A stretch of 12,902 nucleotides of DNA. Source: a virus (Duplodnaviria > Heunggongvirae > Uroviricota > Caudoviricetes). The translations under genes were made by a program, and so were the position numbers. This document shows, piece by piece, positions 1-12,902 of this stretch. Under the pieces are notes generated by a model, which searched no databases, was not told the DNA's origin, and was given only the letters and a program-made list of their open reading frames with translations. The stretch lies in IMG/VR virus record IMGVR_UViG_2541047884_000004. One strand, 5' to 3'. Every line of letters starts with the position of its first letter. The first letter of the stretch is position 1.

Positions 1-169
1 GCATCTGTATGTCAGTAATTACCGCGTTCGCCAGCGTCAGTTCTCTGGCATTTTTGTCGCGCTGGGCTTTGTAGGTAATGGCGTTATCACGGTAATGATT
101 AACAGCCCATGACAGGCAGACGATGATGCAGATAACCAGAGCGGAGATAATCGCGGTTACTCTGTTCAT
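1..169 (-). CDS. Rz-like i-spanin, N-terminal part only; gene continues beyond the window start
   Basis: Minus-strand ATG at 169..167 overlaps the endolysin stop (ATGA). My own translation of the reverse complement gives [56 protein letters not shown]..., i.e. an N-terminal TM helix followed by a charged coiled-coil-like region, and it sits directly downstream of the endolysin. Confidence 0.6.
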
Positions 170-663
170 TGCTGACCCCACAAACAGATTTCACGCTCAA
201 TCTCACGACGAGTCATGAGACCTTTCCATTGCTTACCGCCAGCATATGTCCAGCGACGTAGCTGATCACATGCGCCTTTGATATCGCCCTGGTTTATTTT
301 GCGAAGAAGCGTCGATGTTCTGAAATTGCCAGCACCCACGTTGTAAACGAATGAGTAAAGAGCGCCGCGCATTGTTTCCGGTATATCGACTTTGATGTAC
401 GGGTTAATTTGTCTGGCGACCGTGGCAAGGTCTTTATTCAGGAGGGCTTTGCATTCTGCTTTGGTATACGTTTTACCGAGCATGATGTCTTTTCCTGTAT
501 GCCCGTGACATACAGTCCATACACCAACAATATCTTTGTATGGTATGTAGCTGACACCTTCCAGACCATCGTTACCACTTGGGCCAGTGATTAACACTGA
601 TGCTATAGCAATTGCTCCGCCACCAATAGCAGCAGCAACGGCTTTTCGTAATGATGGAGGCAT
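166..663 (-). CDS. R: SAR endolysin, phage 21 R-type lysozyme (GH24)
   Basis: 165-aa ORF. N-terminal Gly/Ala-rich weak TM segment ([18 protein letters not shown]) typical of a signal-anchor-release domain, followed by a T4-lysozyme-like core. Start ATG 663..661 overlaps the holin stop by 1 nt. Confidence 0.88.
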
Positions 664-878
664 TATTCACCTCTCGCAGCCTTGCGCTTATCTTCTTTAA
701 TCTTGAAATAAAGGTTTGTCAGGTACGTCAGCAGGCCAAATACCAGGCTACCCAGCACACCTATTGCCGCCCACTGTGAGGGCGTGACTTTATCGAGCAA
801 CTGTAAAAACCAGTACCCGGCACTACCTGCTGAGGTACCATAGGCGACACCCGTTGTTAACTTATCCATGGATTTCAT
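663..878 (-). CDS. S: Class II holin, pinholin of the phage 21 S type, with dual-start motif
   Basis: 71-aa [29 protein letters not shown]...; two TM segments; Met1 and Met4 separated by Lys-Ser as in the S21 antiholin/holin pair; immediately upstream of a SAR endolysin. Confidence 0.85.
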
Positions 879-1006
879 AACCCCACCTCGCAGACAAAGC
901 GGGTGTAAATTAAGGGGATACTACGTATCGCAATAAAGGCAGAAACGTAACAGATTCGGAGTCAGTGAATAACTCAGGTATTGGGTTATCAGCTAATATC
1001 GAGACT

Positions 1007-1037
1007 CAAAAAATGGAAAAACCCGCTCGACGGCGGG
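1007..1037 (-). terminator. Intrinsic terminator, minus-strand polarity, about 140 bp upstream of the holin start
   Basis: GC-rich inverted repeat cccgc-tcgacg-gcggg at 1022..1037; on the minus strand it is followed by TTTTTCCATTTTTT (plus-strand A-run 1007..1021). Confidence 0.5.
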
Positions 1038-1466
1038 TTTAAGCTGTGTGACGAAGTAACCACTCTTAACAGCATAACCAATTTTTTACGTACGTAAACT
1101 ACTAAATGATATTTGTGAGAATGCCACCGAGTGTTCAAAACACCACCACAAATGCATAAGAAAACTTCAACAAATAACCAGTTAATAATTTCCGATGTTA
1201 TTTTTAGTTTGTTTAAATTAAGCTAAAGAATTATAGAGCACTTATAAATAAGTGCCATTAATATAAATTAGCTAATAGATTTATTTTTGTTCAGACAAGA
1301 GCCATGAATAGGATTAGATAGAAAAGGTTCAGATAAAAATAGAGATCTACTTCACAAATTAAATGAGAAACTAAAACTTACATCTTGAAATAATCACATT
1401 GATTAGATGAATATTTATCGCGCAGTGACATCATTTTTTAATAATAGTTCAAAAAAAGGGCGTACA

Positions 1467-2549
1467 ATGAAAAAATTAACAGTGGCAATTTCTGCTGTAG
1501 CTGCATCAGTACTGATGGCGATGTCTGCTCAGGCAGCTGAAATTTATAATAAAGACAGTAACAAGCTGGATCTATACGGGAAAGTTAATGCCAAGCACTA
1601 CTTCTCCTCTAATGATGCAGATGATGGTGATACTACTTATGCCCGTCTTGGCTTCAAAGGTGAAACCCAAATCAACGATCAACTGACTGGTTTCGGTCAG
1701 TGGGAATATGAATTCAAAGGCAACCGTGCTGAATCTCAAGGTTCTTCCAAAGACAAAACCCGTCTTGCATTTGCAGGCCTGAAATTTGGTGATTACGGCT
1801 CAATCGATTACGGCCGTAACTACGGTGTAGCATACGACATCGGTGCGTGGACTGACGTTCTGCCAGAATTCGGTGGTGATACCTGGACCCAAACAGATGT
1901 GTTCATGACTGGTCGCACTACTGGTGTTGCAACTTATCGTAACAACGACTTCTTTGGTCTGGTCGATGGCCTGAACTTTGCTGCTCAGTATCAGGGTAAA
2001 AATGACCGCACTGACGTAACTGAAGCCAATGGTGATGGTTTCGGTTTCTCCACTACTTATGAGTATGAAGGATTCGGCGTGGGTGCAACCTATGCTAAAT
2101 CAGATCGCACTGACGGTCAGGTCGCCTATGGTAAGAGCAAATTCAATGCCTCCGGCAAAAATGCGGAAGTATGGGCTGCAGGCCTGAAATATGATGCGAA
2201 CAATATCTATCTGGCTACCACATATTCTGAAACTCAGAATATGACCGTTTTTGGTAATAACCATATTGCAAACAAAGCACAAAACTTTGAAGCAGTAGCA
2301 CAATATCAGTTTGACTTCGGTCTGCGTCCATCTGTTGCTTACCTTCAGTCAAAAGGTAAAGACCTTGGTGTTCATGGTGACCGAGACTTAGTCAAGTATG
2401 TCGATGTCGGTGCTACTTACTACTTTAATAAAAACATGTCCACTTTTGTTGATTACAAAATCAACTTAATTGACGATAGTAAGTTTACCAAAACAGCTGG
2501 TATTGATACCGACGACATCGTCGCTGTAGGTCTGGTTTATCAGTTCTAA
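1467..2549 (+). CDS. nmpC: OmpC/PhoE-family general porin, phage-borne NmpC/Lc-like
   Basis: Signal peptide [23 protein letters not shown] then [16 protein letters not shown]...; hallmark 16-strand porin motifs ([43 protein letters not shown]-terminal VAVGLVYQF). ATG 1467 is preceded by AAGGG. Location between Q and the lysis genes matches the known nmpC (DLP12) and lc (PA-2) position. Confidence 0.88.
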
Positions 2550-2568
2550 TCTGACTTACGAAAAAGAT

Positions 2569-2603
2569 ATGTTGCGGGAGGCTTTGCCTCCGCAACATAT
2601 AAG
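2569..2603 (-). terminator. Long hairpin with downstream U-run on the minus strand; candidate tR'-like terminator about 140-170 nt downstream of Q
   Basis: atgttgcgggaggc / ttt / gcctccgcaacat (13-14 bp stem, one bulge). Minus-strand transcript would continue AUCUUUUUCG (plus-strand cgaaaaagat at 2558..2568). No T-run on the plus side. Confidence 0.4.
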
Positions 2604-2687
2604 TGGAGCCCTCAAGCCACTTCCTTTAGAAGCACTACCTTGCTTCTTACTATATAAACCTTCTGTTATATATTACCCTTTATTTTG

Positions 2688-2713
2688 GGGGCGTTTCCAC
2701 GCCCCATTTTTAA
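2688..2713 (+). terminator. Intrinsic terminator for the porin transcript
   Basis: 7-bp GC stem ggggcgt / ttcc / acgcccc (2688..2705) followed by ATTTTTAA on the plus strand. Confidence 0.55.
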
Positions 2714-2737
2714 TAACTTTTAGTAAACAATTGCATA

Positions 2738-3121
2738 TCAATTAGAATTATTAGCAACGATATCCATATCTAACCGGATATCTAATGCCATTAACATCCC
2801 TTCAATTATGCCCTCAGCCTTCTGTAACCTTTTCCCGATATAACCATCCGAGCAGCAATGCTTACTTGCCAGTGACATGAATGTCATACCACATACATAA
2901 TAATCTACTAATAAATCGTGTAAATCGCTGTTGTTCTTTTTCAGACGGGCCATGCACCCGCAAATGATCATCGCGTCATCGTCACAACATTGCGGGCGAG
3001 ATTTTACTTTTGAAGGAATTAATCCCTTAAAACCGGCGGCAATGGACGACCAGGTCACATCTTCATGATTATTAGCCGCCCACGCACCCCAACGCTCAAG
3101 AACCATCTGAATATCACGCAT
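2738..3121 (-). CDS. Q: Late-gene antiterminator Q (DLP12 QuuD-like)
   Basis: 127 aa from ATG 3121 ([18 protein letters not shown]...), preceded by GGAG; the ORF-track start at 3136 is a TTG. Cys-rich ([12 protein letters not shown] ... HCCSDG). Position between rusA/ylcG and the lysis cassette. Confidence 0.7.
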
Positions 3122-3206
3122 CAACTTACTCCACAAAAATCAGACCAGAACGCCAATTACAAGCAAAAATCAACAAAACAGTATTAGTTGATTGTTATCT
3201 CTGACT

Positions 3207-3347
3207 TCATACTCCTGTTCCTGTCAGGGTTTTGGCGTAATTCTTCAGTATTCGGTAATCGGTCAAAACAGAACCGAGGAAACGATATAAGCGCAGACGC
3301 CCCCAGCGGTGGCGAAGAAGTTCTGCCATATTAAACTCAAACATCAT
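3207..3347 (-). CDS. Small YlcG-like protein (46 aa)
   Basis: Not in the ORF track (too short). My translation: [46 protein letters not shown]. Start overlaps the rusA stop (ATG 3347..3345 against TGA 3346..3344). A small gene of this kind lies between rusA and Q in DLP12-type prophages. Confidence 0.45.
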
Positions 3348-3706
3348 TCATTCCCCATTTCGGTGATGGTCAGTTCCAGCCTCCCACCTTTGGTAACAGG
3401 CATCTTCACAACGCGGTAATCAACGACCTGAGCATCATCCAGCCAGAAACCTGCTTTAGTGAGTGCGTCAAAAGCGGCTTTTTGCAGATTATCCAGGTCA
3501 CGGCGACGGCGATCCGGCATGTGGCACTCAATGCGGATTTTCACAGGCATAGCCAGGCCGATATCCAGCATTGCGTTTTTAATGATTCGGGCGACGTTAT
3601 CGCGGTATGCCTGCCCCTCTGCGCTGACGTGCGTGCGCCCGCGATTATGGCGGTAATAGCGATTATTGCTCGGAGGCCAGGGTAATGTGATGCTGTAGGT
3701 ATTCAC
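3344..3706 (-). CDS. rusA: Holliday junction resolvase RusA
   Basis: 120-aa [49 protein letters not shown]...; matches the RusA family as I recall it, including the acidic catalytic residues. The start codon on the DNA is GTG, preceded by GAGGGGG. Confidence 0.9.
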
Positions 3707-3725
3707 GCCTTAATAACCCCCTCTT

Positions 3726-3920
3726 TCAGCCACATAACCTGTGTTCTCGCCATACCTTCCAGCGCGCATTCTTTTGCATATGCAGCATCGACTTGCTTGG
3801 CATGCCCTTTACCGGCAATCTTCTGTATGCGCTAAACCTAGATAGAATCCACTCTGTGCACATTGAAGCCCGCTCTATGCTTTCTTTCAGGTATTGAAGG
3901 GATTGAGATGGGCTAAGCAT
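3726..3920 (-). CDS. Hypothetical 64-aa protein; N-terminus resembles NinF, remainder unrelated (possible recombination-joint remnant)
   Basis: Strong RBS (caGGAGGccaataATG); ATG overlaps the end of the upstream gene. First ~10 residues [10 protein letters not shown] match my recollection of lambda NinF; the downstream sequence lacks the Cys-rich NinF core. Confidence 0.4.
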
Positions 3921-4260
3921 TATTGGCCTCCTGCATCAGGAGAAAGACAATCATGGCGGCGCGGAGAGGTCTGGTATCAAATATTGGGCTTACGCCTTTT
4001 GCATCCACACACCATTCAGTTAACTGGTCTAAGATAGAAATCCTGTATTTCTCAATAATCGGCCATGAAGCGCTCGGATCATTGCAGTAGTCAGGCAAAT
4101 GATTTAATGGCTCAAAAGTTGTATCAGCATTTCCGTAATACCATTTGTTGGTGTTATTCCCTGATGTTTCCGGTTTACTTGCCCAAAGGCCTTTAAAAAT
4201 TATGTCTCCTACCATTCTGTTAATTTCAAAATCACTTAACTGTGAATAATCCATTGTCAT
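3913..4260 (-). CDS. Hypothetical protein, possibly NinX/DUF2591-like
   Basis: 115 aa from ATG 4260 ([18 protein letters not shown]...), ATGA-coupled to the ninE stop. Family assignment is from memory only. Confidence 0.45.
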
Positions 4261-4433
4261 TTCCTCGCACGATATCTTAGCCACCGGATATCCCACAGGT
4301 GGGCTGTGTAATTGAAGGTTTTTACGTCAGATTCTTTTGGGATTAGCTTGCGTTTATTTCTGGAGCGTTTCGTTGGAAGGTATTTGCAGTTTTCGCAGAT
4401 TATGTCGGTGATGCTTCGTCGCTGTCGTCTCAT
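4257..4433 (-). CDS. ninE: NinE
   Basis: 58 aa from ATG 4433 ([58 protein letters not shown]), near-identical to lambda NinE as recalled. ATGA overlap with the upstream methyltransferase stop. Confidence 0.8.
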
Positions 4434-4957
4434 GCAGCCCTCCTGACGCCCTGCCCGATCGCCATCAATGCCGCTTTGGATACGGTAGTAAACATCCGTC
4501 GAGGACTGATGAACGGTCGCCAAATCAGCAGCATGGAGCCTTTGCTGTTTCCCTTCTTCTCCAGCCCTGTCGATGGTTCGATAAAATTAATCCGTCCATC
4601 AGTGATAATACGAACTTCGTCAACACTCTCCAGAGCCTTGCTGAACCATCCGACAGACATATCCTCTGGCACAAGCATCACTACCGTCTGTCGCTGTTGT
4701 ATACACTGCTCAGCGGCTTTTTCCACCCACGGCCTGATATTGCTGTACGGTGGGTTATTCCAGATTGCACCGTGGCTTACCCACTCAGAATTGAGCGCGT
4801 CGTCGTCCTCAGTTAGCCAGTGAGCGCACAGAGCATTTTTGTCGCTCGCTGCCGAATCCAGCCAGAATCCAAACTCAATATCCAGTGCATCAAAAAGCCA
4901 AAGCGGCGTTTGCCAGCAGTCCTTGTCGTGTGCTGGCGTATTTGATTTGATAGTCAT
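4430..4957 (-). CDS. Phage Dam-type DNA N6-adenine methyltransferase
   Basis: 175 aa from ATG 4957 ([26 protein letters not shown]...); contains the NPPY catalytic motif (WNNPPYS). ATGA overlap with the ninB stop. The ORF-track 5' extension is not credited. Confidence 0.8.
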
Positions 4958-5394
4958 GCAGCCCGATCTCCCCATCGCGCTTTCCATTCGAGAGCCAGTC
5001 GCGCTTCGTCTGACCACTTAACGCCACGCTCTGTACCGAATGCCTGTATAAGCTCTAATAGCTCCGCAAATTCGCTTACACGCATCCTGCTGGTTGACTG
5101 GCCTATTACCACAAAGCCATTCCCGGCAAGGTTAGGAACAACATCCTGCTGCTTTAATGCTGCGGTAAACACACACTTCCAGCTTTCTGCATCCAGCCAG
5201 CGACCATGCCATTCAACCTGACGAGAGACGTCACCTAAGCAGGCCCATAGCTTCCTGTTTTGGTCTAAGCTGCGGTTGCGTTCCTGAATGGTTACTACGA
5301 TTGGTTTGGTTGGGTCTGGAAGGATTTGCTGTACTGCGTGAATAGCGTTTTGCTGATGTGCCGGAGATCGAATTTCAAAGGTTAGTTTTTTCAT
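4954..5394 (-). CDS. ninB: NinB (Orf) recombination protein
   Basis: 146 aa from ATG 5394 (MKKLTFEIRSPAHQQNAIHAVQQILPDPTKP...), preceded by GGGAGAGGGAAG; near-identical to lambda NinB as recalled. Confidence 0.9.
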   Translation of the reverse strand: MKKLTFEIRSPAHQQNAIHAVQQILPDPTKPIVVTIQERNRSLDQNRKLWACLGDVSRQVEWHGRWLDAESWKCVFTAALKQQDVVPNLAGNGFVVIGQSTSRMRVSEFAELLELIQAFGTERGVKWSDEARLALEWKARWGDRAA

Positions 5395-5467
5395 GACTTC
5401 CCTCTCCCCCAAATAAAAAGGCCTGCGATTACCTGCAGGCCTGTTATTAGCTCAGTGATGTAGATGG

Positions 5468-5758
5468 TCATCTTTTAACTCCATATACCGCCAATATCCG
5501 TTTCATCGTGGCACTCTGGCGACACTCCTTAAAAATCAGGTTCGTGCTCATCTTTCCTTCCCGTTCTTCCTTGGTAGCAAACCGGTAATACACCGTTCGC
5601 CAGACCTTACCTTCGATAACCAGAAGACCTGCCCGTGCCATTTTAGCCGCGGCCTGATTTATGCTGGTTACTGTTGCGCCTGTTAGCGCGGCAACGTCCG
5701 GCGCACAGAAGCTATTATGCGTCCCCAGGTAATGAATAATTGCCTCTTTGCCCGTCAT
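5468..5758 (-). CDS. ren: Ren (Rex-exclusion resistance protein)
   Basis: 96 aa MTGKEAIIHYLGTHNSFCAPDVAALTGATVTSINQAAAKMARAG...; matches lambda Ren as recalled. ATG 5758 overlaps the P stop (ATGA). Confidence 0.85.
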   Translation of the reverse strand: MTGKEAIIHYLGTHNSFCAPDVAALTGATVTSINQAAAKMARAGLLVIEGKVWRTVYYRFATKEEREGKMSTNLIFKECRQSATMKRILAVYGVKR

Positions 5759-6456
5759 ACACTTGCTCCTTTCAGTCCTAACTTAGCTTTAATTTCTGCG
5801 ATCTTCGCCAGCGCCTGAACACGATTTAGAGGTCTGCCGCCCATGACAGGAAGTTGTTTTACTGGTTCAGGTATCGTCTCACCACGGTTAATTCGCGCTG
5901 TCATACAGGTCAGTTCATCGGCAGCCTTGCGTCGTAATTCCGCGTCAGTCAGCGCATTGGCCCGCATGTTCTGGTACAGGTTGGTAACCAGCCAGTAGTG
6001 CGCGTTCGATTTCCACGGATAAGACTCTGCATCCGGATACAGGCCTCGCTTCCGGCAATACTCGTAAACCATATCAACCAGCTCGCTGACGTTTGGCAGT
6101 CCGGCGATAACGGATGCTTCTTCCCGGCACCATGCAACAAACTGCCCGGGTGATGGCAGAAATGGTCGATTCTGCCGACGGGCTACGCGCATTCCTGCGT
6201 TAACCTGTTCCATTGTGGTGATCCCGTTTTCCCGGAAAGCCAGAACCCACTGGCGGCGGATTTCGTTCAGTTCGTTCTGGTCACGGTTAGCCAGACTCGC
6301 CGGGAAAGTTGCCAGTAACTGGCTGAACACACCGTTGATGATCTGCGCTACCTGCTGTACCTGCGGCTTTTCGTCGTACTGTTCCGGCATGTTGTTGGCG
6401 ATCCGACGCATCTGCTCACGGTCAAAATTAACCATCTGTGCGGCGATGTTTTTCAT
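5755..6456 (-). CDS. P: Replication protein P (DnaB helicase loader)
   Basis: 233 aa MKNIAAQMVNFDREQMRRIANNMPEQYDEKPQVQQVAQIINGVFSQLL...; near-identical to lambda P as recalled. ATG 6456 overlaps the O stop. Confidence 0.95.
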   Translation of the reverse strand: MKNIAAQMVNFDREQMRRIANNMPEQYDEKPQVQQVAQIINGVFSQLLATFPASLANRDQNELNEIRRQWVLAFRENGITTMEQVNAGMRVARRQNRPFLPSPGQFVAWCREEASVIAGLPNVSELVDMVYEYCRKRGLYPDAESYPWKSNAHYWLVTNLYQNMRANALTDAELRRKAADELTCMTARINRGETIPEPVKQLPVMGGRPLNRVQALAKIAEIKAKLGLKGASV

Positions 6457-6801
6457 AAATCCACCCCGTAAATCCAGTCAGTGTTTGTCAGGTCGAGTTT
6501 TGGTTTGCAGGCTGTCACACCTGCCTGTTGCTTGTTACGGTTGATTTCGAGCTGGGTCCACTTGTCGCGGAGTTTGGCCGGGCTCAGCACGTTACCGGAC
6601 CAGAAGTTGTCCTGGCATGCCCAGCGGAACAGTACACACATGTCGCGATGGTTACGTCCGTCACGTTCACGCATCAGGCGGATATCGTTAGCCCACCCTG
6701 CAAAATTCGGTTTTCTGGCTGATGGCGCGATGGTCTTCACCATGTCAAACATCCATTCTGCGGCGGTCAGGTCTTCTGCTGTCCCCCACTTGCTGCCGCT
6801 C
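6453..6801 (-). pseudogene. O: Replication initiator O, C-terminal (P-interacting) fragment, separated from its 5' part by an IS insertion
   Basis: In-frame translation from the IS boundary reads SGSKWGTAEDLTAAEWMFDMVKTIAPSARKPNFAGWANDIRLMRERDG...GVDL, matching the lambda O C-terminus. No promoter or start of its own; the upstream boundary is the IS end at 6802. Confidence 0.9.
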
Positions 6802-6855
6802 TGAACCGCCCCGGGAATCCTGGAGACTAAACTTCCTGAGAAAGAGGTAAACAGG

Positions 6856-7182
6856 ATGACTAAAAATACTCGTTTTTCCCCCGAAGTCCGTCAACGGGCA
6901 GTCCGTATGGTTCTGGAAAGTCAGAGCGAATATGACTCACAATGGGCGACAATTTGTTCCATTGCTCCAAAGATTGGCTGTACGCCGGAGACTCTGCGTG
7001 TCTGGGTTCGCCAGCATGAGCGGGATACCGGGGGCGGTGATGGAGGGCTCACCACCGCTGAACGTCAGCGTCTGAAAGAGCTGGAACGTGAAAATCGTGA
7101 ACTGCGCCGCAGTAACGATATCCTTCGCCAGGCTTCCGCTTATTTTGCGAAGGCGGAGTTCGACCGCCTCTGGAAAAAATGA
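6856..7182 (+). CDS. IS3-family transposase OrfA (HTH/leucine-zipper part)
   Basis: 108 aa [55 protein letters not shown]...; ends in an A6 run (7174..7179) where the -1 frame OrfB begins. Confidence 0.9.
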
Positions 7183-8069
7183 TGCCACTGCTGGATAAGC
7201 TGCGTGAGCAGTACGGGGTCGGACCGCTATGCAGCGAACTGCATATTGCCCCGTCAACGTATTACCACTGTCAGCAACAGCGACATCATCCGGATAAACG
7301 CAGTGCCCGTGCGCAGCGCGATGACTGGCTGAAGAAAGAGATACAGCGCGTATACGATGAAAATCACAAGGTATACGGTGTGCGTAAAGTCTGGCGTCAG
7401 TTGTTACGGGAAGGTATCAGAGTGGCCAGATGCACTGTGGCACGTCTCATGGCGGTTATGGGACTTGCCGGTGTTCTCCGGGGTAAAAAGGTCCGTACGA
7501 CCATCAGCCGGAAAGCCGTTGCCGCAGGCGACCGCGTAAACCGTCAGTTCGTGGCAGAACGACCTGACCAGCTGTGGGTGGCTGATTTTACTTACGTCAG
7601 CACATGGCGGGGCTTCGTCTATGTGGCGTTCATCATTGATGTGTTTGCCGGATACATCGTGGGGTGGCGGGTCTCATCGTCCATGGAAACGACATTCGTG
7701 CTGGATGCACTGGAGCAGGCGTTATGGGCCCGTCGACCGTCCGGCACGGTCCATCACAGTGATAAAGGTTCTCAGTATGTATCGCTGGCCTACACACAGC
7801 GGCTTAAGGAAGCCGGATTACTGGCATCAACAGGAAGTACAGGCGACTCGTATGACAACGCGATGGCGGAGAGCATCAATGGTCTTTACAAAGCGGAGGT
7901 AATACACCGTAAGAGCTGGAAAAACCGTGCAGAAGTGGAACTGGCCACACTCACGTGGGTGGACTGGTATAACAATCGACGATTGCTGGAAAGGCTGGGC
8001 CATACTCCTCCGGCAGAAGCAGAAAAAGCTTATTATGCTTCCATCGGAAACGATGATCTGGCAGCCTGA
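7179..8069 (+). CDS. IS3-family transposase OrfB (DDE catalytic domain); OrfAB fusion expected by programmed -1 frameshift
   Basis: 296 aa with an rve-type integrase core (…[31 protein letters not shown]… [11 protein letters not shown] … [17 protein letters not shown]…). Overlaps OrfA in the -1 frame at the A-run. Confidence 0.9.
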
Positions 8070-8111
8070 GTTCACAGATAAAACACTCTCCAGGAAACCC
8101 GGGGCGGTTCA

Positions 8112-8665
8112 CTCTGAATTGCAGCATCCGGTTTCACCACAGAAAGGTCGTTTTCTGGCTGGTCAGAGGATTCGCCAGAATTCTCTGACGAATAATCTTT
8201 TCTTTTTTCTTTTGTAATAGTGTCTTTTGTGTCCCCCTGTTTTGAGGGATAGCAATCCCCCAATTTGAGGGATGTTTTATCCCTCGTTTTAGGGGATTTT
8301 CCCTCGTTTTGAGGGATACACCATTCTGAGATGTTTTTATTTGGTCCAAACATGCCGCCTTGCTGCTTGATAATATTCATTCTGACGAGTTCTAACTTGG
8401 CTTCATTGCACCGTTTGACGGGTAACTTTGTAATCTCGCTAAGTTGAGAATCGGTGATTCTGTCCATTGGTTTATTCCATCCATAGGTTTTACGCAGAAT
8501 GGCAAGCAGCACTTTAAACTGTCGCTTGGTCAGATCTGCGCCTGAATAAGCCTCAAGCAGCATATTTGATAGTCTGGCGTAACCATCATCGAGATCTGCC
8601 ACATTACGCTCCTGTTTGGCAAAGTTACCTCTGCAGAAGTTGAGTATTTTTGCTGTATTTGTCAT
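8112..8665 (-). pseudogene. O: Replication initiator O, N-terminal (ori-binding) fragment, truncated by the IS insertion
   Basis: ATG 8665 with AGGAG RBS; MTNTAKILNFCRGNFAKQERNVADLDDGYARLSNMLLEAYSGADLTKRQFKVLLAILRKTYGWNKPMDRITDSQL... matches lambda O. The reading frame runs into the IS end and stops at 8072 after 15 IS-encoded residues. Confidence 0.9.
8185..8317. repeat. ori-lambda-type replication origin inside O: four iterons plus adjacent AT-rich region
   Basis: Four ~18-19 bp near-palindromic repeats of the TCCCTC-N-GAGGGA type (about 8232..8250, 8255..8273, 8279..8297, 8300..8317), flanked by the AT-rich stretch 8185..8231 (tgacgaataatcttttcttttttcttttgtaatagtg). Confidence 0.75.
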
Positions 8666-8697
8666 AATGACTCCTGTGGATTGATCCAGTAATGACC

Positions 8698-8994
8698 TCA
8701 GAATTCCATCTGGATTTGTTCAGAACGCTCGGTTGCCGCCGGGCGTTTTTTATTGGTGAGTCCATCAAGCGCATACTTAAAAGCCCTGCTAATCGGACTG
8801 ATGTCTGATGCCATTCCGAAAGCACACAAGACCGAAGCAATAAATCTCCAGTCCGTTCTGCTTATCTTCGATTCATGACAGCCAATCATCTTTGCCAGAC
8901 CGCGCTGGGTAATAGCTGACAGATTGATAAGTAAATCTGTTTCTGCGCGATCAACGTCACGCTGTGATAGTTTGCTGTAACTTGTTCTTTCCAT
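8698..8994 (-). CDS. cII: CII-like transcriptional activator
   Basis: 98 aa; C-terminal LTNKKRPAATERSEQIQMEF matches lambda CII as recalled, the N-terminal two thirds are divergent. Position between cro and O. Confidence 0.8.
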   Translation of the reverse strand: MERTSYSKLSQRDVDRAETDLLINLSAITQRGLAKMIGCHESKISRTDWRFIASVLCAFGMASDISPISRAFKYALDGLTNKKRPAATERSEQIQMEF

Positions 8995-9079
8995 TTCTTA
9001 AGATTTCCAATAGTGAATAGTTAGTTGAAAGGTATGCGTGGAAACGCATATGGCCTTAGTTGGTCAGATATCTTGGAAC

Positions 9080-9124
9080 TCGCTTTTCAGCGACGTAGGA
9101 CGAATGTCCGTTGTTACAAAGAGC
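9080..9124 (-). promoter_or_regulatory. nutR-like site: boxA, spacer hairpin, boxB hairpin with GAAA loop
   Basis: Minus-strand reading GCTCTTTGTAACAA (boxA-like, 9124..9111), hairpin GGAC-attc-GTCC (9109..9098), hairpin TCGCT-GAAA-AGCGA (9093..9080). It lies just after the cro stop and has the same architecture as the site upstream of N. Confidence 0.5.
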
Positions 9125-9135
9125 GGATCCGCTTA

Positions 9136-9351
9136 TTAAGCGGCTTTGTGTTCCGGCGGGAACACGTCATCAAGACTGACTTTTGCGCCTAACTTGTTTA
9201 GGCACGCAACAAGAGCACGGCATGTTTTAAGGTCTGGGAAGCGACGACCAGATTCCCAATGTCCGATAGCTCCCTGTGTGCATCCAACTGCCTTAGCAAG
9301 TGTTGTTTGAGAGATATTCAGTGACTCTCGATATTTTCGTAGGTTGCTCAT
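9136..9351 (-). CDS. cro: Cro-like repressor (HTH, XRE family)
   Basis: 71 aa from ATG 9351 (MSNLRKYRESLNISQTTLAKAVGCTQGAIGHWESGRRFPDLKTCRALVACLNKLGAKVSLDDVFPPEHKAA), preceded by GGAGGG; divergent from cI. The longer ORF-track form would overlap the operator region and is rejected. Confidence 0.75.
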   Translation of the reverse strand: MSNLRKYRESLNISQTTLAKAVGCTQGAIGHWESGRRFPDLKTCRALVACLNKLGAKVSLDDVFPPEHKAA

Positions 9352-9462
9352 ATGCCCTCCATAGTAAACACGAATAAAAAAATACAATATGTACTTTGCG
9401 AATACAAGTAAAAATACACATTGTGCATGGATGGTTCCAGTACAGAGCGTAATAATAAGGAC
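9352..9462. promoter_or_regulatory. OR region: divergent pR (for cro) and pRM (for cI) with TACA/TGTA-type operator repeats
   Basis: Candidate pR on the minus strand: TTGTAT (9407..9402), 17-bp spacer, TATTTT (9384..9379). Operator-like near-palindromes include TACAATATGTA (9383..9393) and TACAAGTA (9403..9410). The motif at 9382..9397 is shared with the pL region. Candidate pRM -10 TAATAA (9450..9455) lies 7 bp before the cI ATG. Confidence 0.55.
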
Positions 9463-10122
9463 ATGAAAATGAAATGGTATGAACTGGCTAGATCCAGAAT
9501 GAAAGAGCTCGGCATAACTCAAGAGAAGTTAGCCGAAGAGCTAGGTATGACGCAGGGTGGGATTGGACACTGGTTGCGCGGATCTCGTCATCCATCTCTT
9601 AGTGATATTGGTGTGGTGTTTAAATACCTTGGTATTGATAACATATCATTCAACCACGACGGGACATTTTCACCTGTTGGCGAATACTCATCGGCCCCAG
9701 TTAAAAAACAATATGAGTACCCTGTTTTTTCTCATGTTCAGGCTGGGATGTTCTCTCCAGAACTCAGAACCTTTACCAAAGGCGATGCGGAGAGATTGGT
9801 AAGCACAACCAAAAAAGCCAGTGACTCTGCATTCTGGCTTGAGGTTGAAGGTAACTCAATGACCGCACCAACAGGTTCCAAACCCAGCTTTCCTGACGGG
9901 ATGTTAATTCTGGTTGACCCTGAGCAAGCTGTTGAGCCCGGCGATTTCTGCATAGCCAGACTTGGTGGTGATGAATTTACCTTCAAGAAACTGATCAGGG
10001 ATAGCGGTCAGGTGTTTCTACAGCCACTAAACCCACAATACCCAATGATCCCATGCAATGAGAGTTGTTCCGTTGTGGGGAAAGTTATCGCCAGCCAATG
10101 GCCTGAAGAGACGTTTGGGTGA
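9463..10122 (+). CDS. cI: CI prophage repressor: HTH N-terminal domain plus S24 (LexA-like) autocleavage C-terminal domain
   Basis: C-terminal ~150 aa ([71 protein letters not shown]...[10 protein letters not shown]) match lambda CI as recalled, including the GNSM serine and catalytic Lys regions. N-terminal DNA-binding domain differs from lambda. Start taken at ATG 9463 (ATG 9469 also possible). Confidence 0.9.
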
Positions 10123-10161
10123 TGAAACCACTTTTATCTACAATTTACAGGGCGGTAAACA

Positions 10162-10719
10162 TTGGCAAAAATAGATGATTATCAGCCAAGCCAAGTAGAA
10201 GTTGATAAAGTACTTTATTGTAAAAAAATAGTTAACTTTTCTGGCGTTAAATGGAAACAGAAACCAAGTCGCTCTGATATGTGGCTACAAGCCCATATCA
10301 TCCCCTTGGATGAGGATTGTATACCTATACAAGGGCTAAAGTTTGAACTGAAATGGAAACCAGATCAGGATTCAGAACCTGATGACCCGATTTCTTACCC
10401 TAAAATAAATATTATTGCTTTCTATCATAACAAGAGGGTTTTCGCGGTAGATACCTATCACTTTGACAAACACACGAATAGTTACAAGGTCGATCATCCG
10501 AAGTACCAAGATATCATTTACGGTGCTCACTACCATGTATACTATGAAGAAGCTGGATACTATAGTGATAGAATAGCGTTTCCAATCGAAGATGACATAA
10601 ACCCAGATGGCCTGGTAGGGTATTGGAATTACTTCTGTAAACATCTGAACATAACTTACTCTGGGAGAATACCTTTACCGCTTGAAGATGAGTCGGGGCA
10701 AATGGGGTTTGGAATATGA
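10162..10719 (+). CDS. Hypothetical protein, 185 aa, no recognised family; first gene of a two-gene cassette at the rexAB-equivalent locus
   Basis: Long ORF in AT-rich DNA immediately downstream of cI. First in-frame start is TTG at 10162 (preceded by AGGGCGG); no in-frame ATG until codon 40. Hydrophilic, rich in aromatic and acidic residues, no obvious TM segment. Confidence 0.6.
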   Translation: MAKIDDYQPSQVEVDKVLYCKKIVNFSGVKWKQKPSRSDMWLQAHIIPLDEDCIPIQGLKFELKWKPDQDSEPDDPISYPKINIIAFYHNKRVFAVDTYHFDKHTNSYKVDHPKYQDIIYGAHYHVYYEEAGYYSDRIAFPIEDDINPDGLVGYWNYFCKHLNITYSGRIPLPLEDESGQMGFGI

Positions 10720-11468
10720 TGTGCGCAACAGTGATCTCACAACTAGGTTTCGAATGCCATCCAATAGGCAAGACCTTGAGAATTATCAGTCCATTCACTT
10801 ACTGTGATGATGGAGAGCATGTCGGTGCCTTTATCCGTGAAGTCAATGGTAGGTATTTAGTTAGTGACAGATGCGATGCCTTAATGAATATGGAGGCAAG
10901 AGGGATCTCGCTTACCAAAAAACGACTTGATGAGATACGACAATTACTGCTTAAAGAAGGCGCAGAACTCAATGCTCGAGGAGAAATCATTGCTTGGGCA
11001 ACAGAAAAGGATGTCGGTGCGATTACATCGAACATAATTAGAGCTGGTATACTCGCATCAACTTTGTCGTTAGACTGGTATCAGCCAGTTCAAGCTGAAA
11101 AGTTTGAAAGTATGGTTATTGATTATCTATATCACACAGAGCTTAGAGACGCACTTTCTCTTCGTGAAAACGTATATGGCTTGAGTGGACATCAAATTAC
11201 CGTCCCTGTAACAATAAAAACCGACATACCTAAATACGTTTTTACATCAAGCGTGAAACACGGAGGAAGCTGGAATAGTGCTTACTCATTGCTTGGGAAA
11301 CTAATTGATCTTAAAGCTTCAAGTGAGGAGTATAACAACAGATTTGTTGTTATAGACAGCGAAGCAATTGGTGATCAAATGCAACAACTCTCCTTACTCT
11401 TCCATGAATCAAGCCAAGTTCTACCATTCTCCAAAAGAGAGACTTGGGTTAAGAGACTTGCAGCATAA
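10716..11468 (+). CDS. Hypothetical protein, 250 aa, no recognised family; second gene of the cassette
   Basis: ATG 10716 overlaps the stop of the upstream gene (ATGATG...TGA, typical translational coupling). Same strand as cI, followed within 6 nt by an intrinsic terminator. No TM segments apparent. Confidence 0.65.
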   Translation: MMCATVISQLGFECHPIGKTLRIISPFTYCDDGEHVGAFIREVNGRYLVSDRCDALMNMEARGISLTKKRLDEIRQLLLKEGAELNARGEIIAWATEKDVGAITSNIIRAGILASTLSLDWYQPVQAEKFESMVIDYLYHTELRDALSLRENVYGLSGHQITVPVTIKTDIPKYVFTSSVKHGGSWNSAYSLLGKLIDLKASSEEYNNRFVVIDSEAIGDQMQQLSLLFHESSQVLPFSKRETWVKRLAA

Positions 11469-11473
11469 TACAA

Positions 11474-11499
11474 CCCGGCCTCAGCGCCGGGTTTTCTTT
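11474..11499 (+). terminator. Intrinsic terminator ending the cI-cassette transcript (tIMM-equivalent)
   Basis: cccggc / ctcag / gccggg stem-loop followed by GTTTTCTTTG. Confidence 0.6.
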
Positions 11500-11682
11500 G
11501 CCTCACGTTCGCCCACCTAAAAACACATAACCAATTATATTTATTGAAAAATAAATAGATGCAACCCACTAAACCACGCAATTCTGATCTCTCCTTACAT
11601 CGCCGAGGCAATACATCCACGCTAAAAAACAACACTATTAAATACAAAGCGTTATAAAAAACCACGCCAACTTACAACAAAT

Positions 11683-11725
11683 TGTATTGATCTTGTAAAG
11701 TACATATCGTACTATTTAACCGTCA
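11683..11725 (+). promoter_or_regulatory. pL promoter with overlapping OL operator repeats
   Basis: TTGATC (11697..11702), 17-bp spacer, TACTAT (11720..11725). Operator-like inverted repeats TACAACAAATTGTA (11683..11696), TGTAAAGTACA (11704..11714) and AGTACATATCGTACT (11709..11723). The 16-mer AAAGTACATATCGTAC (11707..11722) recurs at OR with two mismatches. Confidence 0.5.
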
Positions 11726-11761
11726 GCAGGACGCTGGAAGCCAAATGGAACAGACTGGCAG

Positions 11762-11806
11762 GCTCTTTAAACAACGTCGACTCTCGACTACGTGGCTGAA
11801 AAGCCA
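11762..11806 (+). promoter_or_regulatory. nutL-like site: boxA, spacer hairpin, boxB hairpin with GAAA loop
   Basis: GCTCTTTAAACAA (11762..11774), hairpin GTCGA-ctc-TCGAC (11776..11788), hairpin TGGCT-GAAA-AGCCA (11793..11806), about 100 nt upstream of N. Confidence 0.5.
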
Positions 11807-11904
11807 GATCACCCAACCACATAAGCTGTGGGATGCAATGCCGAAGCAACCGTCTCAGGAGGAGCTTCGAGATTGCATCGCCAAAGTTTATTCGGGAGGA
11901 ATCC

Positions 11905-12177
11905 ATGTCCAGAAAAACAGAATTTAAAGGCACCGCAGCTTCTCGCCGTAGAGCTCGTCGCGCAAATCTGCAAAGTCAGGAGGCGATCAGCTCCGACAAG
12001 CTACACAGGCCAACCCCTTCACGAGTGGTCTTGCAATGCAAGCTCAAACCAGCAATGAGAGCAGAAGTGATAACTCTGACAACGTTGACCAGAAAATATG
12101 AAGGTTCAACTTGTCTTCCGAACGTAGCTCTTTACGCGGCAGGCTACCGGAAATCAAAACAACTGACGGCGAGATGA
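11905..12177 (+). CDS. N: N-family transcription antiterminator (P22 gp24-like)
   Basis: 90 aa from ATG 11905 with GGGAGGA RBS. N-terminal arginine-rich motif (GTAASRRRARRANLQ); C-terminal LPNVALYAAGYRKSKQLTAR closely resembles the P22 gene 24 protein C-terminus as recalled. First gene after pL/nutL. Confidence 0.75.
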   Translation: MSRKTEFKGTAASRRRARRANLQSQEAISSDKLHRPTPSRVVLQCKLKPAMRAEVITLTTLTRKYEGSTCLPNVALYAAGYRKSKQLTAR

Positions 12178-12193
12178 TAAATTCATTTGCTAA

Positions 12194-12775
12194 TTACTTG
12201 TTTTTGCCATGCTTATCCTGAGCGATAAGTTCATCCATAAGGCTGTCTGCCTTCCCGGCAAACCTAATGTAGCACTCATGTCTATAGCTTTCAGGGATAA
12301 CGAAACGGTCGGTATCAGGATATCCAACAGCAGGAGGCCTTCGAACGAGGAGTCCTTTTTTGAGCAATGAAATTGATTCATGAGCGCCCTTTTCCGTTTG
12401 TAGCTGGTTATTAGCGGCTACAGCGAATGCCAAATACGCTCTTTCTCCAAGAGTTAACGAATCAAACAAATCTTGCACATATTTTTCTTCTTTAGATTTG
12501 CGCTTCTGAGCAGCGAATACCTCAATTCTTTCAGTCACAGCGTGATAAGCGGAATTAACAACGCCGTTAAGCACATAGCTAACGCAAAACAACAGGATGT
12601 AATACATCCAGTAATGAGGAAGGATTTCTGGATTATGCAGGTTTATCCATTCTTTTACGCTTACCGGCATAACAATAATCAATATGATCAGGATGATTAG
12701 CATATGAATCAACTGTTTAAGTGTCATTCCTTGCAGGAAAAAATGCATTAGTTCCTGCCACCATGAGTTGTTCAT
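12194..12775 (-). CDS. sieB: Superinfection exclusion protein B
   Basis: 193 aa from ATG 12775 (MNNSWWQELMHFFLQGMTLKQLIHMLIILIILIIVMPVSVKEW...), hydrophobic N-terminal TM region; near-identical to lambda SieB as recalled. Convergent with N. Confidence 0.85.
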   Translation of the reverse strand: MNNSWWQELMHFFLQGMTLKQLIHMLIILIILIIVMPVSVKEWINLHNPEILPHYWMYYILLFCVSYVLNGVVNSAYHAVTERIEVFAAQKRKSKEEKYVQDLFDSLTLGERAYLAFAVAANNQLQTEKGAHESISLLKKGLLVRRPPAVGYPDTDRFVIPESYRHECYIRFAGKADSLMDELIAQDKHGKNK

Positions 12776-12809
12776 CGGCGTTTCTCTTTTGCTCTCTGTA
12801 GGGGTGAAT

Positions 12810-12902
12810 TGAACCGCCCCGGGTTTCCTGGAGAGTGTTTTATCTGTGAACTCAGGCTGCCAGATCATCGTTTCCGATGGAAGCATAATAAGCTTTTTCT
12901 GC
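12810..12902 (-). mobile_element. End of a second IS3-family (IS629/IS1203-like) copy, inverted relative to the first; continues beyond the window
   Basis: 12810..12902 is the reverse complement of 8019..8111, the right end of the complete copy including its terminal inverted repeat and the 3' end of OrfB. Confidence 0.88.

Follow-up and report, generated by a model that had tools for sequence, protein, structure and literature searches.

Introduction

The older literature describes Dam of phage T1 as the GATC methyltransferase of a virulent coliphage. Prophage VT2-Sa carries M.EcoVT2Dam, an orphan methyltransferase that is known to target GATC (PMC6602927), and PMC7139368 and PMC7556043 cite Radlinska & Bujnicki 2001 for Dam-like (GATC) activity. 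The dam coding sequence (CDS) of phage Phi24B, 528 bp in length, specifies a product 100% identical to NP_050531, the product of orf32 of the Shiga toxin 2 (Stx2) phage VT2-Sakai; the Min27 product is also 100% identical to it, and those of HK97 and 933V are 99% identical (PMC3342100). What Dam enzymes do for phages is described as not well understood (PMC7556043). Here we analyze a 12,902-nucleotide stretch of a lambda-like prophage (IMG/VR record IMGVR_UViG_2541047884_000004; the whole stretch is referred to as the window) and, on its minus strand, a gene that lies between ninB and ninE and most likely encodes an orphan GATC methyltransferase of this kind. An initial annotation, made from the DNA letters, had called it a Dam-type adenine methyltransferase without giving its strand.

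Results

The methyltransferase and its predicted target

The minus strand of the window at 4430..4957 is a single intact open reading frame (ORF) of 528 bp and 175 amino acids, running from an ATG at 4957..4955 to a TGA at 4432..4430. The program that listed the ORFs places the start farther out, at a GTG at 5017; the ATG at 4957 is supported as the true start both by how RefSeq annotates identical DNA and by where 43 homologues have their N-termini. RefSeq names the product a phage N-6-adenine DNA methyltransferase (WP_000153286.1 in ATCC 11775), and we regard the CDS as an allele of M.EcoVT2Dam. By Pfam scan the protein matches PF05869 ('DNA N-6-adenine-methyltransferase (Dam)') with 219.1 bits against a cut-off of 28.1 (E=3.7e-65; profile positions 1-167 of 169), and it matches the NCBIfam equivalog TIGR01712 ('phage N-6-adenine-methyltransferase') with 265.6 bits against a cut-off of 97.05 over the entire profile (1-165 of 165). 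These two full-length matches, both above their cut-offs, go far beyond what chance would give and bear out the initial description of a phage N6-adenine methyltransferase. Other matches are to phrog_111 (PHROG 111, 'DNA methyltransferase') and, best in PADLOC, to models of an 'orphan methyltransferase'. Judged by its sequence, the protein belongs over its full length to the phage N-6-adenine-methyltransferase family, in the T1/HP1/VT2 group.

The evidence for the target comes from VT2-Sakai. The protein encoded in the window is identical at 174 of its 175 residues to orf32 (NP_050531) of that phage, which has the same length; the sole difference, D51 here and A51 in orf32, falls in a freely varying alignment column within a variable loop. 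orf32 is the only annotated DNA methyltransferase of VT2-Sakai, and on that basis we infer that it is M.EcoVT2Dam; it too has ninB and ninE as its neighbors, and its stop and start codons overlap with theirs. The initial annotation held that target specificity could not be read from sequence. In practice it can be inferred here, because of this near-identity and because M.EcoVT2Dam is reported as GATC-specific in the papers cited above, and the enzyme most likely methylates the adenine of GATC. One consequence concerns how the enzyme would be assayed: the absence of a new methylated motif upon expression, which the initial annotation would have counted against a methyltransferase, would be a false negative in a Dam+ strain, because the host Dam already methylates GATC.

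Motif IV, the catalytic and adenine-binding NPPY (N68-P69-P70-Y71, codons AAC CCA CCG TAC; 4745..4756, minus strand), is present in the sequence and invariant in all 44 aligned homologues, so that the alignment, which had been proposed as a check for a mutated catalytic motif, finds it intact. In fact, all 46 invariant columns of the 44-sequence alignment are kept here, including T17-P18, E28-F29, F31, L33, D34, A36, and the four residues of motif IV. Alignment and structural model together indicate a motif I-like segment, F31-W-L-D34-S-A-A-S38 (4844..4867, minus strand), following the model strand E31-34 and presumed to be the SAM (S-adenosylmethionine)-binding loop after strand 1; its FxLDxAA pattern includes the invariant F31, L33, D34, and A36, and D34 stands 33 residues before N68. 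A SAM-binding role for this loop and for D34 is suggested by the general architecture of N6-adenine methyltransferases. Motif I thus precedes motif IV in the protein, no recognition domain intervenes between them, and the whole protein is one 175-residue domain.

We judged the fold on an AlphaFold2 model because a sequence search of the PDB gave nothing meaningful (best E-values 0.31, to SdiA, and 0.69); the PDB has no PF05869 structure. The model (mean predicted local distance difference test score, pLDDT, 87.8; predicted template modeling score, pTM, 0.86) has alternating strands and helices in the class I (Rossmann-like) N6-adenine methyltransferase fold, and its best structural matches are PCIF1, M.TaqI, and HsdM. 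The enzyme is an orphan without a restriction partner, as indicated by its neighbors NinB and NinE, by the absence of an adjoining endonuclease gene, and by the best PADLOC match; its relatives at 64–68% identity in Providencia and Yersinia prophages are likewise without a nuclease neighbor.

Gene order and expression signals

The initial annotation also proposed that the gene is translationally coupled to ninB and ninE in the slot held by ninC and ninD in lambda, and both statements stand. At the upstream end, the ninB stop (TGA, 4956..4954) and the methyltransferase start (ATG, 4957..4955) share an ATGA at 4954..4957; at the downstream end, the methyltransferase stop (TGA, 4432..4430) and the ninE start (ATG, 4433..4431) share another at 4430..4433. 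Both overlaps are on the minus strand and agree with the RefSeq coordinates, in the first case those of the identical prophage. In phage lambda, ninC and ninD fill the ninB-ninE interval that the methyltransferase gene occupies here. The upstream neighbor, ninB (orf), a recombination mediator (4954..5394, minus strand), is identified by PF05772 (184 bits) and the downstream neighbor, ninE (4257..4433, minus strand), by PF05322 (140 bits), both in agreement with RefSeq annotation, for ninB that of identical DNA. The flanks farther out carry NinX, RusA, and the Q antiterminator in one direction and ren and P in the other. A GGGGAG 10 nt 5' of the methyltransferase ATG, within the end of ninB (4968..4973, minus strand), resembles the consensus and is a possible Shine-Dalgarno sequence.

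A consensus scan finds a hairpin followed by a T-run, resembling an intrinsic terminator, between ren and ninB (5419..5442, minus strand); from the lambda gene order, we take it to be the counterpart of lambda tR2. Near the other end of the window, a small gene on the plus strand (11905..12177), a 'hypothetical protein' in ATCC 11775, encodes an arginine-rich stretch, KGTAASRRRARRANLQ, that resembles the RNA-binding motif of lambdoid N antiterminators. Because a tR2-like site and an N-like gene are both present, expression of the methyltransferase gene from the PR operon under antitermination would be expected. Promoter-like matches in or near the gene (4632..4605 and 4428..4399) are no commoner than in shuffled sequence, and we claim no internal promoter. 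The antisense ORFs on the plus strand (4312..4446, 4476..4823, and 4839..5021) have no Pfam match, and a scan of the methyltransferase region against Rfam gave no match.

Distribution of the gene

The gene is already known and annotated, and it is ordinary rather than new. At the DNA level it shows 100% identity to genes that carry the name 'phage N-6-adenine-methyltransferase' in E. coli ATCC 11775, Nissle 1917, NU14, and many more. Of the 5426 complete E. coli genomes, 1566 (∼29%) hold it at a nucleotide identity of at least 95%, as do 244 phage records, among them Stx1 and Stx2 phages, HK140, Sf101, and numerous wild lambda-like isolates, where it is nearly always found between NinB and NinE. 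Protein relatives were found by tblastn in 1906 phage records, and a large protein collection holds hundreds of clusters of them, every one with PF05869 and the same naming.

The relatives at 64–68% identity are not bound to ninB and ninE. In Providencia prophages (loci L010-L012), the relative has the replication genes on one side and Q on the other, in the early operon, and in Yersinia prophages (loci L007-L009) it ends the early-left arm, close to the integrase or to the end of the prophage and downstream of both an exo-like gene (YqaJ) and a homologue of DNA_pol3_theta. On the strength of these loci, the methyltransferase gene behaves as a movable early-operon cassette.

The surrounding prophage

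The window is 99.98% identical to a prophage of ATCC 11775 over 1..6805 and 8112..12809. Between these segments, a 1313-bp insertion at ∼6806..8118, absent from the ATCC 11775 prophage, splits the O replication gene (6453..6752 and 8072..8665, minus strand). The insertion is an insertion sequence (IS) of the IS3 family, with OrfA at 6856..7182, OrfB at 7179..8069 (HTH_Tnp_1 and rve), and an ALIL frameshift pseudoknot at 7137..7253. It appears to be like IS629/IS1203, since its size fits that of IS629/IS1203 plus a 3-bp duplication and similar elements among the matches are annotated IS1203. The exact junction of IS and O has no contiguous match among the complete E. coli genomes in the collection. 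A second copy starts at 12810, 34 bp upstream of the sieB start (sieB 12194..12775, minus strand), and runs off the window (12810..12902); its end reads as the right end of the first copy in reverse complement, with one peptide encoded at ∼8000 on one strand and again at ∼12880 on the other, so that two IS copies in inverted orientation flank the immunity region. Because O is split by the IS, the prophage is probably replication-defective, and the methyltransferase gene in it probably amounts to hardly more than a passenger. The insertion, lying between PR and the nin genes, may also lower nin expression.

Several other genes of the window may be recorded here. Directly downstream of cI, in the position of lambda rexA/rexB, is a pair of overlapping plus-strand genes (10162..10719 and 10716..11468). 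The second (DUF1828) matches the PADLOC candidate defense protein PDC-M24B nearly end to end (E=5e-10), and the first has a weak match to PDC-M24A (E=0.0012), with DUF6978 below its cut-off; the pair is a possible two-gene anti-phage system expressed in the lysogen. A gene for a general porin of the OmpC/NmpC kind (1467..2549, plus strand; Porin_1, 505 bits), annotated ompC in ATCC 11775, lies on the opposite strand between the Q antiterminator (2738..3136, minus strand) and the lysis genes (holin 663..878, lysozyme 166..663, minus strand); it is a cargo gene, as in DLP12-type prophages. In the interval from rusA to ninX, an N-terminally truncated DUF1364 pseudogene is annotated in the identical prophage of ATCC 11775 (∼3703..3792, minus strand), and a 64-residue ORF at 3726..3920 (minus strand) has no Pfam match; the interval looks like a small decayed gene of the nin region.

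Discussion

The best overall explanation, to which we give a probability of roughly 0.88, is that the gene at 4430..4957 encodes a small, single-domain, SAM-dependent orphan GATC N6-adenine methyltransferase, expressed from the early operon, that would complete the GATC methylation of phage DNA. By analogy with the family, a pocket with N68-P69-P70-Y71 as its lining would receive the flipped target adenine, and a methyl group would pass to its N6 from SAM held by the FxLDxAA loop around D34. By its position, the gene would belong to the nin segment of the rightward early (PR) operon, downstream of the tR2-like terminator, and its product would be made after prophage induction or infection, when N antitermination is active, with its translation presumably coupled to that of ninB and ninE through the ATGA overlaps. 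One could then envision the enzyme completing GATC methylation on fast-replicating phage DNA where the host Dam lags; progeny DNA would thereby be shielded from methylation-sensitive restriction systems that cut GATC and, being fully methylated, would be treated by the host as 'old' DNA. Bearing on this role, virion DNA of P22 and lambda has been reported to be under-methylated by the host Dam (PMC8022706). Bearing on expression, the level of the Phi24B dam transcript changes significantly upon induction (PMC3342100).

Several points weigh against this explanation. The link between orf32 and M.EcoVT2Dam is our own, and the GATC result for M.EcoVT2Dam is taken from three citing papers (PMC6602927, PMC7139368, and PMC7556043); moreover, the restriction-protection assays of the period may have overlooked weaker off-target methylation. 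No PF05869 structure in the PDB explains how an enzyme of 175 residues without a separate target-recognition domain would read GATC. Composition gives no sign of selection tied to this site, as the window is neither poor nor rich in GATC (37 sites, with 47.8 ± 6.3 expected; not significant). Finally, the Phi24B dam product, identical to that of orf32, was detected with a lysogen-specific antiserum, raised to cultures of the lysogen, and the enzyme may therefore have a role there (PMC3342100).

The last of these observations underlies an alternative in which the lysogen is the main site of action and the enzyme, instead of protecting phage DNA during lytic growth, is an epigenetic factor that supplements or replaces the host Dam at GATC, stabilizing lysogeny or shifting Dam-dependent host expression. 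The authors of the Phi24B study themselves raise the possibility that its product supplements the host Dam, on which the stability of 933W lysogeny depends (PMC3342100). However, the gene belongs to the PR operon, which the repressor controls, and follows a tR2-like terminator, spontaneously induced cells are always present in lysogen cultures, the Phi24B transcript responds to induction as described above, and the host already methylates GATC, so we consider a principal role in the lysogen quite improbable. The lack of a separate target-recognition domain in 175 residues could instead be taken as a sign of relaxed or different specificity, with GATC merely the site that was assayed and the enzyme a broad anti-restriction adenine methyltransferase like M.EcoGII or Hia5; non-specific adenine methyltransferases do exist in prophages of E. 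coli and Haemophilus (PMC5778455, PMC3299994, and PMC7556043). Those enzymes belong elsewhere, however: M.EcoGII is described as being of the beta class (PMC7544214), and Hia5/Hin1523 is related to EcoDam, DpnM, and T4Dam (PMC3299994), whereas the protein described here falls in neither family. We rejected membership in the M.EcoGII/Hia5 kind, comparing by family and description rather than by sequence, since motif I precedes motif IV, which is not the beta order, and PF05869 is the sole match. Nor does the record of the VT2 enzyme favor broad activity. M.EcoVT2Dam is listed as GATC-specific, and a strain in which an M.EcoVT2Dam homologue (99% amino acid identity) is present in two additional copies had one extra motif, CRARCAG, of which its authors thought the M.EcoVT2Dam copies an unlikely source, proposing the Type IIG enzyme Eco95NR1IX instead (PMC6602927). 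Relaxed specificity is accordingly an alternative to which we give very little weight.

Decay of the prophage might also have reached the methyltransferase gene and left it an inactive remnant, as could be suspected from the IS in O, the second IS copy nearby, and the neighboring DUF1364 gene, a pseudogene in the identical prophage. Yet the ORF is full-length, every invariant residue of the family is retained, and the DNA is identical to copies in inducible, sequenced phages, among them ev207, ev017, and PhiR57_1; the chance that the gene is inactive is, in our estimation, negligible.

As a discovery, the gene is of small significance: it is named in RefSeq, it occurs in about three of every ten complete E. 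coli genomes, and its product is one residue away from an enzyme cloned and characterized in 2001. The questions of interest are those of the whole family, namely why a second GATC methyltransferase is retained by phages whose hosts are already Dam+ and how 175 residues without a recognition domain read GATC. To the first, one could speculate that, beyond the usual view of protection from restriction, this very common GATC methyltransferase lacking a target-recognition domain serves in lytic growth as a counter-defense or timing device, pre-empting host systems that respond to unmethylated or hemimethylated GATC, such as MutH, SeqA, or methylation-sensitive defense nucleases, and to the second that GATC is read in an unusual way, for example through dimerization or a C-terminal hairpin and helix; we regard these proposals as unlikely, and offer them as speculation.

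It is in comparison with other adenine methyltransferases that the term 'Dam-type', used in the initial annotation, needs qualification, as it is apt for the target and for the Pfam name and misleading as to ancestry. The family of E. coli Dam, T4 Dam, and DpnM (alpha class, PF02086) gives no match, a Pfam scan at E≤0.01 returning PF05869 alone; EcoDam, T4Dam, and DpnM match the model at the level of the fold only, with 8–11% identity. In those enzymes, a recognition domain lies between the SAM-binding and catalytic halves, whereas the protein described here has none, the gap from D34 to N68 being 33 residues. PMC7139368 states that among phage Dam-like enzymes only those of T2 and T4 are homologous to cellular Dam. 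The nearest neighbors by fold are instead PCIF1, M.TaqI, and HsdM, and the 'group 2' adenine methyltransferases of Iyer et al. (M.TaqI/M.EcoKI/PCIF1) fit the enzyme (PMC4738411). Even so, members of the PCIF1/M.TaqI/M.EcoKI group share only 13–17% identity with it; M.TaqI and HsdM carry or are partnered with target-recognition modules, and PCIF1/CAPAM is a eukaryotic mRNA cap methyltransferase of ∼700 residues with extra domains. Although PCIF1 is the top fold match, we rejected an RNA methyltransferase as the identity of the protein, because the likeness goes no further than the N6-adenine methyltransferase fold that the two have in common, M.TaqI, M.BseCI, and HsdM, which act on DNA, score nearly as high, and a near-identical enzyme is reported to methylate DNA.

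Of the described enzymes, T1 Dam (gp20, 237 residues; annotated as resembling HP1/HP2 Dam) has PF05869, the motif order, and NPPY in common with the protein, and differs from it in sequence (33% identity), in ∼45 extra N-terminal residues, and in a 14-residue insertion before the last strands. In comparison with VT2-Sakai, the prophage studied here is lambda-like, without stx and with IS insertions, and it carries between ninB and ninE a methyltransferase that matches orf32 in all but residue 51.
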